Assembly (NCBI GenBank): GCA_963714785.1
Contig: CAVQQE010000012.1
Span: 147,027-211,026 of the forward strand
DNA length: 64,000 bases
Origin: an uncultured Acidobacteriota bacterium
GTDB taxonomy: Bacteria > Acidobacteriota > Terriglobia > Acidiferrales > UBA7541
Reading direction: 5' to 3'
The position numbers and the translations under genes are program-made. A model generated the notes under the pieces. It made no database searches. It was not told where the DNA came from and saw only the letters and a list, made by a program, of their open reading frames with translations. This document shows positions 3,312-13,213 of the stretch, one piece after another (within the stretch, counting starts at the first letter, position 1; every line of letters starts with the position of its first letter).

Positions 3312-3454
3312 TTAAAGTTCAACCGTCTGGGGTGCGTTGACTGCTGGTTGTCAAGGGGGCCGGCATGAACGAACCCGAGAGCGCTGCAAGTTCAAAACGC
3401 AGGTTGTCAAAAATGGTGGTTCGGCCCCCGGCAAATATCGTTGGAGGAAATTTG

Positions 3455-5425
3455 ATGAGATCGAAAACGCTTCCCTTGCTTGCTTTCGTCGCGCTGTTGG
3501 CGGTTTTCATCCTGAACAGTTGCGGCAGCAGTGAGGCCAATTGTCCGGTCTGCGGAACCACAAAGAACGGGACGATCGGTCTGATTGACGTGATGCTCGT
3601 GCCGGAACACAACCCCAACGGAGAGCCTGGCGGACCGTTCAACATTTTTGACATTAGCTGGGTGGATCCGGTGAACCGCAATTATGTAGTGTCGGACCGC
3701 GTCGGACTCGACGTTCCCGTGTTCAACACGGTGAGCAATACTGCATTGTGGGCAATCGGCGGGGACAACTCGGTGGCGGAGGCGGGATACAACGCCAGCT
3801 CTTGCTGGGTCGATCCCACAAATGCCTTGGCAACGATTCCTCCGATCACAACTGCGCAGGGCAACTTCACGCGCTTCGGCTGCAAGACGGATGGCTTCCG
3901 CCTGCCTGGCTTCTTCGGTCCTAACGGCCATTTCGGCGGATTTGTAGGCGGCCAATGTTGCGCATCCCGCTCCAACAACTTGAATCCTTTGTCAGGTCCA
4001 AACGGCATGGAAATTTCAGGGGACGGGAACTTCCTGTTTGTAGGAAATGGTAGTTCAGAATTTGTAATATTCGACTTAACCCCGATGATTTCAAGTGGCT
4101 ATACGGCTCCTCCCTTGGTAACCGCGGTGATACCGACCGGTAGTTCGCCCGATTATGACGGGCTCCCGAGTGGAATCAGCCCGTGCATGGCGTCTGCAGA
4201 TGGAAGAGCGTTCTCCGACCCGACCTGCGGCGATCTGCGCGGGGATGAACTTGCGACAACCGGCGGCGTCGTGACTTTTCCGCAAGACGGTTCCAGTCGC
4301 TACCTCGTCTCGATCATCAACGGAGACCCGGGACTTCCATTTGTTACCATCGTTGACGTCACGGGCGTCGTGACGAGAACGGGAACCGACGCGCAGCAGC
4401 ATTGTCTCGCCTATTCTCAGGTTGTGGACCCCACCAATCAGGCGCCGTTTAGTCCCGGTATCAGTACCTATGTCCAGGGCCTCGGTGGTGCCACAATCAC
4501 AACAACCTTTCCGGCTAATTACGACTCATGCATCCTCGGCCAGATTTACTATGACGTGGCAGCCCAGAATGACGACACCGTGTTTATTGACGATCAAGGT
4601 GCGAATGCCACGGCCGGTATTGTCTGTCCCGATCCTTCGCTCCAATTCGCGGGCTCTGCTCCGGGCATGCCCGGACCGCCCGTTCCGAGCGGTGCTTCAG
4701 GCCACGCGGCTGGCTTTAACCCGGACGTGCCTTGCCACCACGGACCTCAGCTTACCCTCACGACTTCGACGCAGGCGGGCGGAGTTTTCTGTCCGGCTGG
4801 GCCCGGTACGCCACCGGGTTGCGTAGGGGCATCTGCACCCGCCGGGTTAGGTGGAATGATTTACTACCCGCCGTTGAACGCATTTCTTCTGACCAACGCA
4901 AACTCAACGGGTGACATCACGGTTGGCAGCGTTGATGTGATCGACCCCCTGCACCCAATAATGGTCGGCGGGGTCCCCAAGTACGTGCCGGCGGTCATCA
5001 ATAGTTATCCGATGTATAATTGCATGCCAACCGGATTGAATCTCGGGCCGGGCACGGACGTCCTGGTGGGCTGCGCCGATCACGATGGCCGCGCATTCGC
5101 CCCTTCTACGGTTATCATCAACGGTACGACTGGCGAAGTCCTTACGACGATCAACTACGTAGGATTCGTTGACGAGACTTGGTACAACCCGGGCGACGGC
5201 AACTACTACCTGGCGTCCAGAGACATGCCCACCGGTCCGGTTCTTGGAGTGATCAATGCCAAGACCAGACTATGGCTACAAAACGTACCCACGAACGGCA
5301 ATGCTCACAGCGTGGCGGCGGATCCGATTAACAATCACATTTACGTTCCGCTACCCTCCGGGAGCAGCGCGAACTGCCAATCAGTTGCAGCGGATGGGTG
5401 CGTCGGCGTGTACGCGGCTCAGTAG
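3455..5425 (+). CDS. secreted lipoprotein, Cys-rich YncE/YVTN-like beta-propeller repeat protein (function unknown)
   Basis: The track ORF starts at 3365, but ATG 3455 has GGAGG 7 nt upstream. It opens a lipoprotein signal with lipobox (MRSKTLPLLAFVALLAVFILNSC). Repeated blade-like segments are present (NYVVSDR, RYLVSIINGD, NYYLASRD, NHIYVPLP). Confidence 0.75.
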   Translation: MRSKTLPLLAFVALLAVFILNSCGSSEANCPVCGTTKNGTIGLIDVMLVPEHNPNGEPGGPFNIFDISWVDPVNRNYVVSDRVGLDVPVFNTVSNTALWAIGGDNSVAEAGYNASSCWVDPTNALATIPPITTAQGNFTRFGCKTDGFRLPGFFGPNGHFGGFVGGQCCASRSNNLNPLSGPNGMEISGDGNFLFVGNGSSEFVIFDLTPMISSGYTAPPLVTAVIPTGSSPDYDGLPSGISPCMASADGRAFSDPTCGDLRGDELATTGGVVTFPQDGSSRYLVSIINGDPGLPFVTIVDVTGVVTRTGTDAQQHCLAYSQVVDPTNQAPFSPGISTYVQGLGGATITTTFPANYDSCILGQIYYDVAAQNDDTVFIDDQGANATAGIVCPDPSLQFAGSAPGMPGPPVPSGASGHAAGFNPDVPCHHGPQLTLTTSTQAGGVFCPAGPGTPPGCVGASAPAGLGGMIYYPPLNAFLLTNANSTGDITVGSVDVIDPLHPIMVGGVPKYVPAVINSYPMYNCMPTGLNLGPGTDVLVGCADHDGRAFAPSTVIINGTTGEVLTTINYVGFVDETWYNPGDGNYYLASRDMPTGPVLGVINAKTRLWLQNVPTNGNAHSVAADPINNHIYVPLPSGSSANCQSVAADGCVGVYAAQ

Positions 5426-10190: not shown

Positions 10191-11237
10191 CTATCTCGCC
10201 TCAAGCATGGCGCTTGCGATTCGGCGTCCCACCGCTGGCGCGATCACGCGCACTTCATCCATCAGACGGGCAAATTGTTCGGGGTAAATTGATTGCGCTC
10301 CGTCAGACAGAGCGCGCTCAGGGTCTTGATGAACTTCAATCAGCAATCCGTCGGCACCCGCTGCAACCGCGGCTCGGGCCATGGGCGGAACTTTGTCGCG
10401 ACGTCCTGTGCCGTGCGATGGGTCCGCCATCACCGGCAAGTGAGAAAGCTGCTTAATCACGGGAATCGCCGCAATATCCATGGTGTTGCGCATGTATGTG
10501 TCGAAGGTGCGAATGCCGCGTTCACACAGAATCACATTGTAGTTTCCGCCAGACATGATGTATTCCGCGCTGAGCAACAGTTCTTCAATTGTCGCGGACA
10601 TGCCACGCTTCAGCAGCACCGGCTTGCTGTTTTCTCCCAGTGCGCGCAGCAGGTAATAATTTTGCATGTTGCGCGCGCCTACTTGCAGCACATCGACATA
10701 CGGGAGCATCAGCTCAATTTGCGAAGGATCCATCACCTCACTCACGACCAACAAGCCGTTCTTATCCGCGGCATCACGCAATAGCTTCAGTCCTTTTTCG
10801 CCCAGGCCTTGAAAAGAATAGGGCGAGCTTCTGGGCTTGAATGCGCCACCGCGTAACAGTTTCCCGCCGGCGTGCGCTACAGCCGTGGCGATTTCATTAA
10901 TCTGTTCAGGCGACTCTACGGCACATGGCCCGCCGGCCACGATCACTTCTGTTCCACCAATCGAGACGCCTTTGCCCAGTTCGATGATCGAGCCCTCCGG
11001 CCGAAAATTACGGGAGGCCAGCTTAAAGGGGTGCGTGATGCGTATGATTTCCTCCACGCCTGGCGCGGCCAGCAAAGCTTCGAGTTGGCTCTGATGCTGC
11101 GCGCTGCGTCCAACTACGCCAATCACGGTTCTTTCTTCGCCGCGGCTCAGATGCGCCTGGCAGCCGCACTCTCTGATCCGTTCCACTACGTGGTTGATTT
11201 GTTCTTCGGTTGCGCCCTGCGCCATGTTGACGATCAT
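10191..11237 (-). CDS. aroF: 3-deoxy-7-phosphoheptulonate (DAHP) synthase, type I-beta, with N-terminal ferredoxin-like regulatory domain
   Basis: GGPCAVES...[18 protein letters not shown] core. The roughly 75-aa N-terminal extension [29 protein letters not shown] resembles the Thermotoga-type enzyme. Last gene of the operon. Confidence 0.9.
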
Positions 11238-11252
11238 GATTAGTCTCCCAAG

Positions 11253-12110
11253 TTACGATGTGTTGCTATTTTCAGTCTTCGCAGAAACGTAAGAACCTAA
11301 AATCCGCACGTCTACCGCGAGCTTTTTTAGTTCGTCTAACGCCGCTTGAACCTCCGGATCGCTCGCAAACGCCTGCAGGTCTAAATAAAAGCGGTATTGC
11401 CAGGGAAGCCCGCGAACGGGCCGGCTCTCGACTTTCATTAGATTAATTTTTCGACGCGCGAAAGGTTCTAGTGCGTAAAATAGCGCGCCGGGAACGTGTG
11501 CAAGCCTGAACACCAGAGAAATTTTGTCCGCTCGCTCTGGCACAGTCTCCATCGCCGGTGCCAGCAGGACAAACTGCGTGTAATTCTCGGGATCGTCTTC
11601 CAAGTTCTCGCGAAGAATCTGTCCACCATATATCTGCGCGGCGCGTTTACTGGCGATGGCAGCTCGTTTGCGATCTTCAGCCCGCACGATCTCGCGAACA
11701 CTTCCCGCCGTATCGTCCGTTGCAATTCTTTTCAAGGATGGTCGGGAGCTGAAAAACTGCTCGCACTGCGCTAAAGCTACGGGATGCGATTCCACGACGG
11801 TTACATCTTCAAAAGTCGATCCCGGTAGGCCGATTAAGTTGTGCTGCACGCGAATAATCACCTCGCCGATAATCGTCAAATCGCTCTCCACCAATAAATC
11901 CAAAGACCTTTGAACCGGACCGGCCAAACTATTCTCGATAGGCGCCAAAACGTAGCCCGCCTTGTGTTGCGCAATTGCGTTGAAAGCAGCTTCAAAGGTT
12001 GGAAGCGGCAGGAGAGAAACTGCGCCTCCTAATAACTTGATCGCCGCTTCTTCACTGAAGGCACCGCGCTCGCCTTGAAAGGCCACCTGCTTGTCCCTGG
12101 AAAGCTTCAT
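11253..12110 (-). CDS. pheA: prephenate dehydratase with C-terminal ACT domain
   Basis: VAFQGERGAFSEEAA N-terminus, an ESRP motif (MKVESRPVRG), and a 4-nt ATGA overlap with the upstream chorismate mutase gene. Confidence 0.9.
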   Translation of the reverse strand: MKLSRDKQVAFQGERGAFSEEAAIKLLGGAVSLLPLPTFEAAFNAIAQHKAGYVLAPIENSLAGPVQRSLDLLVESDLTIIGEVIIRVQHNLIGLPGSTFEDVTVVESHPVALAQCEQFFSSRPSLKRIATDDTAGSVREIVRAEDRKRAAIASKRAAQIYGGQILRENLEDDPENYTQFVLLAPAMETVPERADKISLVFRLAHVPGALFYALEPFARRKINLMKVESRPVRGLPWQYRFYLDLQAFASDPEVQAALDELKKLAVDVRILGSYVSAKTENSNTS

Positions 12111-12478
12111 GCGACGCCCGGCTTTCGCCGCTTTGGTCGAACTTCAACCGGATTCTTCCGGTTGCGATGGGATGCGGAAACGTTTTTCGATTTTGCTGCG
12201 GCGTCGTAACCGTGACTTTCCTGGATACGAATCGATTCATCCAAAATAAGCTGATAGATTTTTCCGACCGCCTCGCTATCCAGCGGCCCGGGATTCAGTT
12301 TCTTCATGCGGGAGAGAATCTCCTGCTCGCGCGCCGGGACGCGAAGCAGCATGCCAGCCTCTCCCTTCAGCTTTCCAACCTCCAGCGCAAATGCCGCGCG
12401 CACGTTCAGGAGATGCAGCAGTGTTGTGTCGATCGCATCGATCTTCGTGCGCCAGTCTCCAATCTTCAGTCCTCGCAT
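12107..12478 (-). CDS. chorismate mutase (AroQ class)
   Basis: IDAIDTTLLHLLNVRAAFALEVGKLK..PAREQEILSRM is typical of AroQ. A strong GAGGAGG SD lies 4 nt upstream of ATG 12478. Confidence 0.85.
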   Translation of the reverse strand: MRGLKIGDWRTKIDAIDTTLLHLLNVRAAFALEVGKLKGEAGMLLRVPAREQEILSRMKKLNPGPLDSEAVGKIYQLILDESIRIQESHGYDAAAKSKNVSASHRNRKNPVEVRPKRRKPGVA

Positions 12479-12575
12479 CCGGCCTCCTCGGAATATCGAA
12501 AAACAATTTCCAAGCTTCTCGCGTGAAATCGTTAAAACGTTCGAGCTACAAAATCTCGCGCCCCAAATTTTGCGT

Positions 12576-12614
12576 AAAACAAAAAGGCCGCGTCCTCTTC
12601 GGAGGGTCGCGGCC
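12576..12614 (-). terminator. intrinsic terminator of the aro-operon leader (attenuator terminator)
   Basis: Minus-strand GGCCGCGACCCUC-CGAA-GAGGACGCGGCC (12614-12586) is followed by UUUUUGUUUU (12585-12576). It lies UPSTREAM of the chorismate mutase start and downstream of the leader ORF. Confidence 0.8.
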
Positions 12615-12652
12615 GGCTCTTAAGACCTCTTGCGGTGTTTGCTGCTATTTTC

Positions 12653-12739
12653 TCAGATCATCCGCGCGCGTCTCGCCGGGCCGCTTCCCATAGAGGAGAA
12701 GCGGTAGGTAAAGGCGAAACAGTAATCAAACAGATGCAT
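12653..12739 (-). CDS. Phe/Tyr-rich leader peptide (28 aa) of the chorismate mutase-pheA-aroF operon
   Basis: Hand translation of the minus strand, ATG 12739 to TGA 12653, gives MHLFDYCFAFTYRFSSMGSGPARRARMI. Residues 4-14 contain 4 Phe and 2 Tyr. An in-frame stop lies 8 codons upstream. SD is weak (GGAA 6 nt upstream). Its position between promoter and terminator supports a regulatory role. Confidence 0.65.
   Translation of the reverse strand: MHLFDYCFAFTYRFSSMGSGPARRARMI
12681..12704 (-). promoter_or_regulatory. attenuator 1:2 hairpin (alternative to the anti-terminator)
   Basis: Perfect 7-bp stem CCGCUUC (12704-12698, covering leader codons 12-14 including the last Phe codon) / GAAGCGG (12687-12681). 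The 3' arm extended to GCGGCCCGGC (12684-12675) can instead pair with GCCGGCCGC (12617-12609). That sequence overlaps the terminator 5' arm. Confidence 0.55.
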
Positions 12740-12790
12740 CGCGGGTTCCAGTTTTCCTTTCGACTAACACACTCGCGGAGTCGAGCCGTA

Positions 12791-12820
12791 ACTATATCCA
12801 ACGCCTTGCAAATGCGTCAA
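12791..12820 (-). promoter_or_regulatory. sigma70-type promoter of the aro leader
   Basis: Minus strand: TTGACG (12820-12815), 18-nt spacer, TATAGT (12796-12791). Each hexamer matches consensus at 5 of 6 positions. The predicted start near 12784 gives a leader of about 45 nt before the leader ATG. Confidence 0.6.
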
Positions 12821-12913
12821 GCGTTCGATTGTAAAAAGTTGTAAAGCGTTCTGTTACAAATCGATTCGAACCCGCGCAAGTCCAGTCGCAATTCGCACGC
12901 CAGATTTGGCAGC

Positions 12914-13213
12914 TCACGCGGTGTGGCTGAGTGCGGCCAAGGGAAGCGCAGAGAGGTCCAGCTCCACTTCATCTATATAGCACCAGCCCCAAGTCTCTCC
13001 GGGCTCGAACGACTTCATGATGGGATGCTTGGTATGATGGAAATGTTTGGTCGCGTGTTTGTTTTTGGACGAATCGCAGCAGCCCACGTGCCCGCACTCC
13101 AAACAGAGGCGCAAGTGAACCCAGGTATCGCCCATTTTCAAGCATTCCTCGCAGCCATTGGGAGTGCGCGGTGTTACATTCCGAATCTGATTCATATGTG
13201 TACAAGCCGCCAT
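12914..13213 (-). CDS. UBP-type zinc-finger domain protein
   Basis: CEEC..W.HLRLCLECGHVGCCDSSKNKHATKHFHHTKHP....W.WCY is the Cys/His spacing of zf-UBP. 99 aa. Confidence 0.8.
   Translation of the reverse strand: MAACTHMNQIRNVTPRTPNGCEECLKMGDTWVHLRLCLECGHVGCCDSSKNKHATKHFHHTKHPIMKSFEPGETWGWCYIDEVELDLSALPLAALSHTA

Follow-up and report, generated by a model that had tools for sequence, protein, structure and literature searches.

The attenuator of Escherichia coli pheA (pheL-pheA; Rfam Phe_leader; PMC3082878) is a leader-peptide device placed before a chorismate mutase/prephenate dehydratase function, with Phe codons in RNA segment 1, the 1:2 / 2:3 / 3:4 logic of alternative pairings and an intrinsic terminator; pheL is catalogued from Gammaproteobacteria, and only a few candidates were reported elsewhere, in Bacteroides and Desulfobacterium (Gurvich et al. 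2010, PMC3082878). The archetype of both mechanism and topology is the trpL-trp attenuator of E. coli, which has other regulatory codons and bears its stop codon between segments 1 and 2. In Corynebacterium glutamicum, in the account given by a later paper, a Phe-Tyr-Phe leader peptide (aroR) controls the operon of 3-deoxy-D-arabino-heptulosonate 7-phosphate (DAHP) synthase, aroF, by ribosome stalling, with an effect from Phe limitation only (Neshat et al. 2014, via PMC11802643). The T-box leaders found at aromatic amino-acid genes of Firmicutes are also cis-acting terminator/antiterminator devices responding to tRNA charging, but they bind the uncharged tRNA directly and contain no open reading frame (ORF). 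The present analysis concerns a 64-kb stretch of DNA from an uncultured Acidobacteriota bacterium (contig CAVQQE010000012.1), hereafter the window, and within it the 435-nt gap 5′ of an operon encoding chorismate mutase (CM), prephenate dehydratase (PDT, gene pheA) and DAHP synthase (aroF). Sequence comparison and RNA modelling indicate that this gap very probably holds a ribosome-mediated, leader-peptide transcription attenuator of the trpL/pheL type which controls the CM-pheA-aroF operon.

Compared with pheL, the acidobacterial leader belongs to a different phylum, alternates its aromatic residues (F-A-F-T-Y-R-F-S-F) where E. coli has runs of Phe, and mixes in Tyr codons and, in one subclade, Trp codons. 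No sequence or structure homology between both leaders is detectable with Rfam. The operon is also different, as CM and PDT are separate genes and DAHP synthase is encoded too, unlike in E. coli pheA. In comparison with trpL, the differences are the location of the stop codon, which comes only after segment 2, in the apical portion of the antiterminator, and the antiterminator itself, which is a four-helix stem of about 75 nt. The closest known analogue, as far as can be judged from its functional description only, is aroR-aroF of C. glutamicum, which shares the mixed Phe/Tyr codons and the DAHP synthase operon, but belongs to Actinobacteria, has three regulatory codons versus 6–9 in the acidobacterial leaders, and differs in operon content. 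Since a mixed Phe/Tyr leader is known in C. glutamicum, the regulatory logic considered here is not unprecedented.

Concerning the databases, no Rfam family reached its gathering score in the window and seven related loci (L008, L018, L032, L037, L056, L064 and L074; 116 kb), and none of the amino-acid leader and T-box families gave a match at E up to 10 in positions 12300–13000. The failure to match a catalogued leader bears on the novelty of the element, not on its existence. Three representative leader peptides were without match at E up to 10 in Pfam and NCBIfam. The literature searched describes neither a leader-peptide attenuator in Acidobacteria nor the present element, in agreement with what a preliminary description of the window, made by reading its sequence, had supposed.

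That description had placed in the gap a promoter of the form TTGACG-18-TATAGT, a 28-codon ORF with four Phe and two Tyr codons, a terminator followed by a U-run and, about 97 nt further on, the ATG of CM preceded by GAGGAGG. All these parts were found on the minus strand at the positions assigned to them, and the distance from the end of the U-run to the ATG is 97 nt. They are collected in Table 1 together with the RNA segments and the structural genes.

Table 1. Features of the leader region and the CM-pheA-aroF operon; all coordinates at the locus refer to the minus strand of the 64-kb window
Feature	Position	Strand	Parts	Basis or comment
Sigma-70-type promoter	12791..12820	(-)	TTGACG 12820-12815, 18-nt spacer, TATAGT 12796-12791	
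Shine-Dalgarno-like sequence of leader ORF	12746..12749	(-)	GGAA, 6 nt 5′ of leader ATG	Weak; putative assignment
Leader ORF	12653..12739	(-)	28 codons + UGA, MHLFDYCFAFTYRFSSMGSGPARRARMI	Start codon and aromatic core kept in all informative relatives
Regulatory aromatic codons	12698..12730	(-)	F4, Y6, F8, F10, Y12, F14	Codon counts across 71 unique leaders
Segment 1	12695..12720	(-)	GUUUCGCC (12720-12713), CCGCUUCUCC (12704-12695)	Folding, pair counts
Segment 2 (position of the whole segment), parts pairing with segment 1	12662..12689	(-)	GGGAAGCGG (12689-12681), GGCGAGAC (12677-12670)	
Segment 2, pairing with segment 3		(-)	GCGGCCCGGC (12684-12675), GAGAC (12674-12670), GCGG (12665-12662)	
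Segment 3	12609..12635	(-)	CCGC (12635-12632), GUCUU (12626-12622), GCCGGCCGC (12617-12609)	
Intrinsic terminator (3:4)	12576..12614	(-)	GGCCGCGACCCUC-CGAA-GAGGACGCGGCC, then UUUUUGUUUU	Hairpin 12614-12586, U-run 12585-12576
Shine-Dalgarno sequence of CM	12489-12483	(-)	GAGGAGG	Read from sequence
Chorismate mutase (CM_2), first structural gene	12107..12478	(-)	ATG at 12478	Pfam
Prephenate dehydratase PheA	11253..12110	(-)		Pfam PDT and weak ACT match
DAHP synthase (DAHP_synth_1)	10191..11237	(-)	N-terminal ferredoxin-like (FXD) regulatory domain	Pfam

The occurrence of the element in relatives was studied in two samples. The genome sample was obtained by a PheA scan with one genome per species, from which the best 80 of 393 relatives were taken; nearly all the 80 loci are labelled as Acidobacteriota or Ca. 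Acidiferrales metagenome-assembled genomes, and their PheA identities are 62–93%. The genes CM, pheA and aroF follow the same order at all the loci where the region is present, and the element precedes them in every genome with the upstream region available (76/76). An aromatic-rich ORF before a terminator was called in 72 of these loci, and the four loci missed by the patterns also carry the element, with an in-frame start codon and ORF in three of them. The terminator form GGCCGCG...CGCGGCY followed by T6GTT stands 5′ of CM in nearly all the genome loci. For the metagenome sample, a DNA pattern derived from two conserved blocks was used, which matched at least 120 contigs; among the matches listed, 112 are immediately followed by CM-pheA-aroF, 7 lie too near a contig edge to show what follows and one is due to chance. 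Altogether, about 190 related soil acidobacterial sequences contain the element, which is common in soil and peat metagenome data. The constant position 5′ of CM-pheA-aroF indicates that the element is dedicated to this operon. The conservation of mini-ORF, terminator and promoter, which had been proposed as a check, was observed in all the informative relatives. One of the 112 contigs, L133 (Ga0209116_1002996), keeps to CM for about 30 codons and then passes into unrelated sequence of high G+C content; it is probably an assembly chimera.

The leader ORF is singular within the window, where it is the only one among 1016 short ATG/GTG ORFs of both strands to have at least six aromatic residues in the first 16 codons. 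In the relatives it has 27–34 codons and begins with an in-frame ATG or GTG in 72/72 extracted leaders, with means per leader of 4.2 Phe, 3.1 Tyr and 0.24 Trp codons. An Arg-Phe anchor is invariant and in frame with the start codon in all 72. Numbering codons from this invariant Arg, aromatic residues occupy positions −9, −5, −3, −1, +1 and +3 in 60, 65, 71, 67, 71 and 68 of the 71 unique leaders, respectively. The variable N-terminal codons are aromatic in 38% of cases when read in frame, versus 7% and 6% in the other two frames. The Thr and Ala codons drift synonymously, at the third position only (Thr: ACT 25, ACG 23, ACC 10, ACA 2; Ala: GCC 50, GCT 13, GCA 2), and codon +3, located in the hairpin loop, drifts among TTT, TAT, TGG, TTC and TAC. 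Most relatives have a purine-rich GGA/GAG block as far from the start codon as GGAA is in the window. In contrast to this 5′ half, the frame of the 3′ half differs by lineage (GSGPARRAR versus GERAGETRA) and the spacings from block to block are free of a mod-3 constraint, from which it can be said that the 3′ half is conserved as RNA rather than as peptide. Judged by these comparisons, the 5′ half of the leader ORF, and this half only, appears to behave like a translated regulatory ORF, translation itself being presumed.

Another observation on the same codons is the presence of TGGTGG, i.e., two Trp codons at +3/+4, in the 1:2 hairpin loop of one subclade (L018, L020, L021, L028, L044 and L064). 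The leaders of those genomes have thus Phe, Tyr and Trp codons together.

The promoter-like sequence TTGACG-18-TATAGT matches 10 of 12 consensus positions, and two promoter-like sites were observed in the region against 0.6 expected from shuffles. Transcription would start near 12784, about 45 nt 5′ of the leader ORF. With a strict pattern, TTGACG-N17/18-TATAGT or TATATT, with variable spacer sequence, was found in about 58 of the 72 relatives, and the promoter usually begins 75–85 nt 5′ of the leader start codon (range 35–91).

The RNA structures were analyzed in an alignment of 72 sequences (A1) by RNAalifold, per-sequence folding and ensemble averaging. The preliminary description had pointed out a perfect 7-bp hairpin and an alternative pairing at the origin of the 1:2 / 2:3 / 3:4 topology. 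Both are present, but both turned out to be incomplete. The 1:2 hairpin of CCGCUUC (12704–12698) with GAAGCGG (12687–12681) extends to 9 bp, and it is prolonged by an outer helix that had not been listed, formed by GUUUCGCC with GGCGAGAC; the consensus of the inner helix across leaders is CCGCUUCYCC:GGRGAGCGG. The alternative pairing of GCGGCCCGGC with GCCGGCCGC, with 9 pairs and one bulge, is only the base of a larger antiterminator, which includes also the helices GAGAC:GUCUU (12674–12670 / 12626–12622) and GCGG:CCGC (12665–12662 / 12635–12632). The consensus antiterminator consists of four helices: GCGG:CCGC, CCGG(C):(G)CCGG, GARAC:GUYUY and GCGG:CCGC. GCCGGCCGC of segment 3 overlaps the 5′ arm of the terminator. 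Within the antiterminator, it is the base alone that excludes both the 1:2 hairpin, through the shared GCGG, and the terminator, through the shared GGCCGC.

These mutually exclusive pairings, as expected for a pheL/trpL-type topology, are conserved with compensatory changes. RNAalifold recovered the 1:2 hairpin and the terminator. In the terminated state, 96.2% of the alignment cells are paired versus 41–54% in controls with slid partners, and in the antiterminated state 94.4% versus 24–42%. Column 99 of A1 (G or A) fits both its alternative partners in 72/72 sequences: with column 49 it forms UG in 44, UA in 22 and CG in 6, and with column 150 it forms GC in 27, GU in 23 and AU in 22. Compensatory changes in the base of the antiterminator are CUGG:CCAG (L008, L034), CUUGG:CCAGG (L010) and UCGA:UCGG (L064). 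When native and swapped-partner duplexes of segments 2 and 3 were compared, the native energy was better in 108 leaders and worse in 46, a weak signal that goes together with the identity of most leaders in both segments.

The terminator is kept in 157/157 unique leaders. Its inner stem, which takes no part in the antiterminator, appears in 104 different sequences, all of them stem-forming, while the outer stem, which the antiterminator also uses, does not vary, in keeping with a need to fit two partners. In the window, the terminator is one of eight strong hairpin-plus-U-run sites found by our own scan of both strands. A consensus terminator scan of the region did not report it, apparently because of a 2x1 internal loop in the stem rather than because of its absence. 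The folding z-score of the whole leader, taken as a single sequence, was −1.1, which is unremarkable, so the significance of the structures rests on the comparative evidence and not on the single sequence.

A further feature of A1 is the sequence CGCG directly 5′ of the leader start (columns 22–25; ~12741–12745 in the window), more than 90% conserved, with no predicted helix and no covariation. Its pairing with CGCGCGC of segment 2 was considered and rejected, as it gave no pair at a mean probability of at least 0.25 and no covariation.

Concerning the energetics, it had been pointed out from the start that the attenuator would be untenable if the 2:3 pairing could not compete with the terminator. 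The energies calculated for the window were −25.3 (1:2), −30.5 (2:3) and −20.5 kcal/mol (3:4), and the means over the 72 leaders were −27.5, −29.5 and −20.1 kcal/mol, respectively; by these values 2:3 is a strong competitor of the terminator. The base helix of the antiterminator occurs in the minimum-energy fold of segments 2–3 in 72/72 leaders. With segment 1 free, the combination 1:2 + 3:4 is favoured, while 2:3 can at least compete once segment 1 is masked, so that the predicted fold switches from terminator to antiterminator, as the preliminary description had anticipated. During transcription, 2:3 would form first.

The response to the position of the ribosome was scanned in the 72 leaders by means of a constrained partition function, with an assumed footprint of 27 nt placed at each A-site codon. 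Without ribosome, the mean probability of the terminator was 0.69. A ribosome whose A site occupied codons −3 to 0, counted from the invariant Arg, gave an antiterminator probability of 0.47–0.59 as a mean and 1.0 for the window, where codons −9 to −4 gave 0.68–0.85. From codon +4 onwards, the stop codon included, the mean probability of the terminator was 0.87–0.99; for the window, it was 0.98–1.0 at +4 to +14 and 0.66 at the stop codon. In this model, the response is that expected of a trpL/pheL-type attenuator.

The mechanism that can be proposed on these grounds is as follows. The Phe/Tyr-rich codons 4–14 lie in and just 5′ of segment 1. When Phe-tRNA and Tyr-tRNA are plentiful, the ribosome would reach the stop codon, located in the apical region of the antiterminator, and would cover segment 2, or the 1:2 hairpin would re-form after ribosome release; either way GCGG and GGCGAGAC of segment 2 would be unavailable, the 3:4 terminator would form and a leader transcript of about 210 nt would be released. 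When the charged tRNAs are scarce, the ribosome would stall at the aromatic codons and cover segment 1, leaving segment 2 free to pair with segment 3 as the four-helix antiterminator. The base of the latter would sequester GGCCGC of the terminator 5′ arm, and RNA polymerase would enter the operon. The in silico support of this attenuator comprises its sequence parts, their conservation and covariation, the energetics and the predicted response to ribosome position. The coupling of ribosome and polymerase, and a response to Phe and Tyr in vivo, are presumed to accompany it.

Different interpretations of the same data were considered. One of them keeps the attenuator but makes it act through the nascent peptide, with FAFTYRF causing arrest or serving as a sensor inside the ribosome, as TnaC does, beyond slow decoding. 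It finds some support in the core residues Ala, Thr and Arg, kept in 65, 60 and 71 of 71 leaders, and in the Thr codon, which varies at its third position only despite being placed in an internal loop. Nevertheless, most of the core nucleotides are accounted for by pairing (UUUCGCC in the outer helix and CCGCUUC in the inner helix), the clade L008–L014 has LGYAYRF in place of FAFTYRF, and the interchange of Phe, Tyr and Trp at the aromatic positions points to codon sensing more than to a fixed arrest sequence. It seems reasonable to consider this interpretation very unlikely. A riboswitch, or a target of protein-mediated antitermination, could instead sense Phe, Tyr or a regulator directly, the short ORF being incidental. 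Unpaired conserved bases of the antiterminator (the GCGC/ACAAA internal loop and the apical region) and the conserved repeat adjoining the promoter could be read in that sense. An incidental ORF does not agree, however, with the frame-specific enrichment in aromatic codons (38% versus 6–7%), with an aromatic block that shares its frame with a start codon in 72/72 leaders, or with a stop codon always located between segments 2 and 3; moreover, the ribosome-position scan fits the geometry of attenuation and no Rfam family matched. Direct sensing is therefore regarded as highly improbable.

Less related to attenuation is the possibility of a free-standing small RNA gene, or of a terminator belonging to the upstream zf-UBP gene, without a cis-regulatory role. 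The element has indeed its own promoter and terminator, and it shows a sub-threshold likeness to a Burkholderia small RNA model (19 bits versus a gathering score of 40, E = 0.068). Yet it is found on the same strand and directly 5′ of CM-pheA-aroF in all the informative genomes and in 112 of the 113 real metagenome matches among those listed, with no occurrence at any other place in these data; the terminator is 300 nt past the stop codon of the upstream gene and downstream of a conserved promoter, and conservation extends to the alternative pairing of the terminator arm. This makes such an origin extremely improbable, even if the terminated leader may have a trans-acting role. Finally, the conserved block could encode a protein on the opposite strand, where plus-strand ORFs run at 12635–12844, 12391–12693 and 12306–12623, and where the best antisense frame is stop-free over a median of 67/68 codons in the relatives. 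The absence of antisense stops is as expected for a G+C-rich sequence. In the 157 leaders, GGCGARAC and the terminator arm are separated by distances that belong 39, 67 and 51 times to the three mod-3 classes, which means that no reading frame of either strand is conserved across the element, and the antisense protein was rejected on this test, its probability being practically negligible.

Concerning the ribosome-mediated attenuator itself, several points weigh against it. Its support is wholly in silico. The bistability at equilibrium is partial, as the mean terminator probability is just 0.69 without ribosome and the mean antiterminator probability about 0.5–0.6 with a stalled one, and in the footprint model codon +3, aromatic and strongly conserved, favours the terminator, unlike the prediction of the simple model. 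The paired columns are mostly invariant, so the covariation comes from a handful of positions in few lineages, and the sequences are phylogenetically related. The Shine-Dalgarno-like sequence of the leader ORF is weak. Conservation of the CGCG ahead of the start codon, and of Ala, Thr and Arg in FAFTYRF, exceeds what the model strictly requires. In addition, the hairpin loop of L035 (~3400–3600) is 1 nt shorter, and the resulting frameshift leaves the leader ORF with no stop codon ahead of the terminator; this may be an assembly error or else a natural variant in which the ribosome would run into the terminator.

A more speculative view goes beyond the attenuator as described: the core (Y)FAFTYRF(S/P)(F/Y/W) might be a nascent-chain element that tunes or causes arrest, as an integrated sensor of the three aromatic amino acids, or else the element might be the first of a wider, uncatalogued set of acidobacterial attenuators. 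This is considered unlikely.

As to the significance of the element, Acidobacteriota are abundant in soil and mostly uncultured, and to our knowledge almost nothing is known of their cis-regulatory RNA. Surveys of attenuators (Vitreschak 2004, Lopatovskaya 2010) reportedly predicted them in further phyla. The acidobacterial leaders make up a clearly delimited attenuator family, uncatalogued, with its own conserved sequence and well supported by comparison, which can be converted to a covariance model for the annotation of soil and peat metagenomes. Together with the regulatory domains of PheA and DAHP synthase, it suggests a layered control of aromatic amino-acid synthesis. The contrast between the frozen terminator arm that is shared and the freely drifting inner stem that is not shared gives a clear illustration of the constraints acting on a switching RNA. 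No new mechanism is revealed; what is new is an attenuator in a phylum where, in the literature searched, none was described. For the specialist, it would be a solid addition rather than a surprise.

The remaining observations concern the surroundings of the element. No second copy of it, nor other attenuators, were found within the 64-kb window. The other strong terminator candidates of the window, when checked, mostly fell inside an ORF or shortly after the 3′ end of one, and none stood before a short aromatic-rich ORF. The neighbour gene 5′ of the leader promoter (12914–13213) encodes a protein of 99 amino acids which is a zf-UBP zinc finger according to Pfam, a domain familiar mainly from ubiquitin hydrolases of eukaryotes. 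A direct repeat, TTTGTAACAGAACGCTTTAC / TTTACAATCGAACGCTTGAC, occurs at 12816–12860 with a spacing of 25 nt and 75% identity; its second copy overlaps the −35 hexamer, and it is kept in the closest relatives (L001–L006). The repeat could be an operator or a duplicated promoter, providing a further layer of control. A TyrR box was considered for TGTAAC-N7-TTTACA, 5′ of the −35 hexamer, and it was discarded, since TyrR boxes have a spacing of 6 and the arrangement was computed as a direct repeat and not as a palindrome.

In more distant relatives (L016, L017, L023, L026, L037, L039 and L045–L055), a conserved block GATAAGTCAAATTTGTAATTCTTGC is located 45–90 nt 5′ of the −35 hexamer of the leader promoter. 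It is followed by an inverted repeat, NCATAA-N7-TTATGN, which could be a hairpin or a palindromic operator, possibly a divergent promoter. The flanks of this repeat covary, with the combinations ACATAA..TTATGT, CCATAA..TTATGG and GCATAA..TTATGC.

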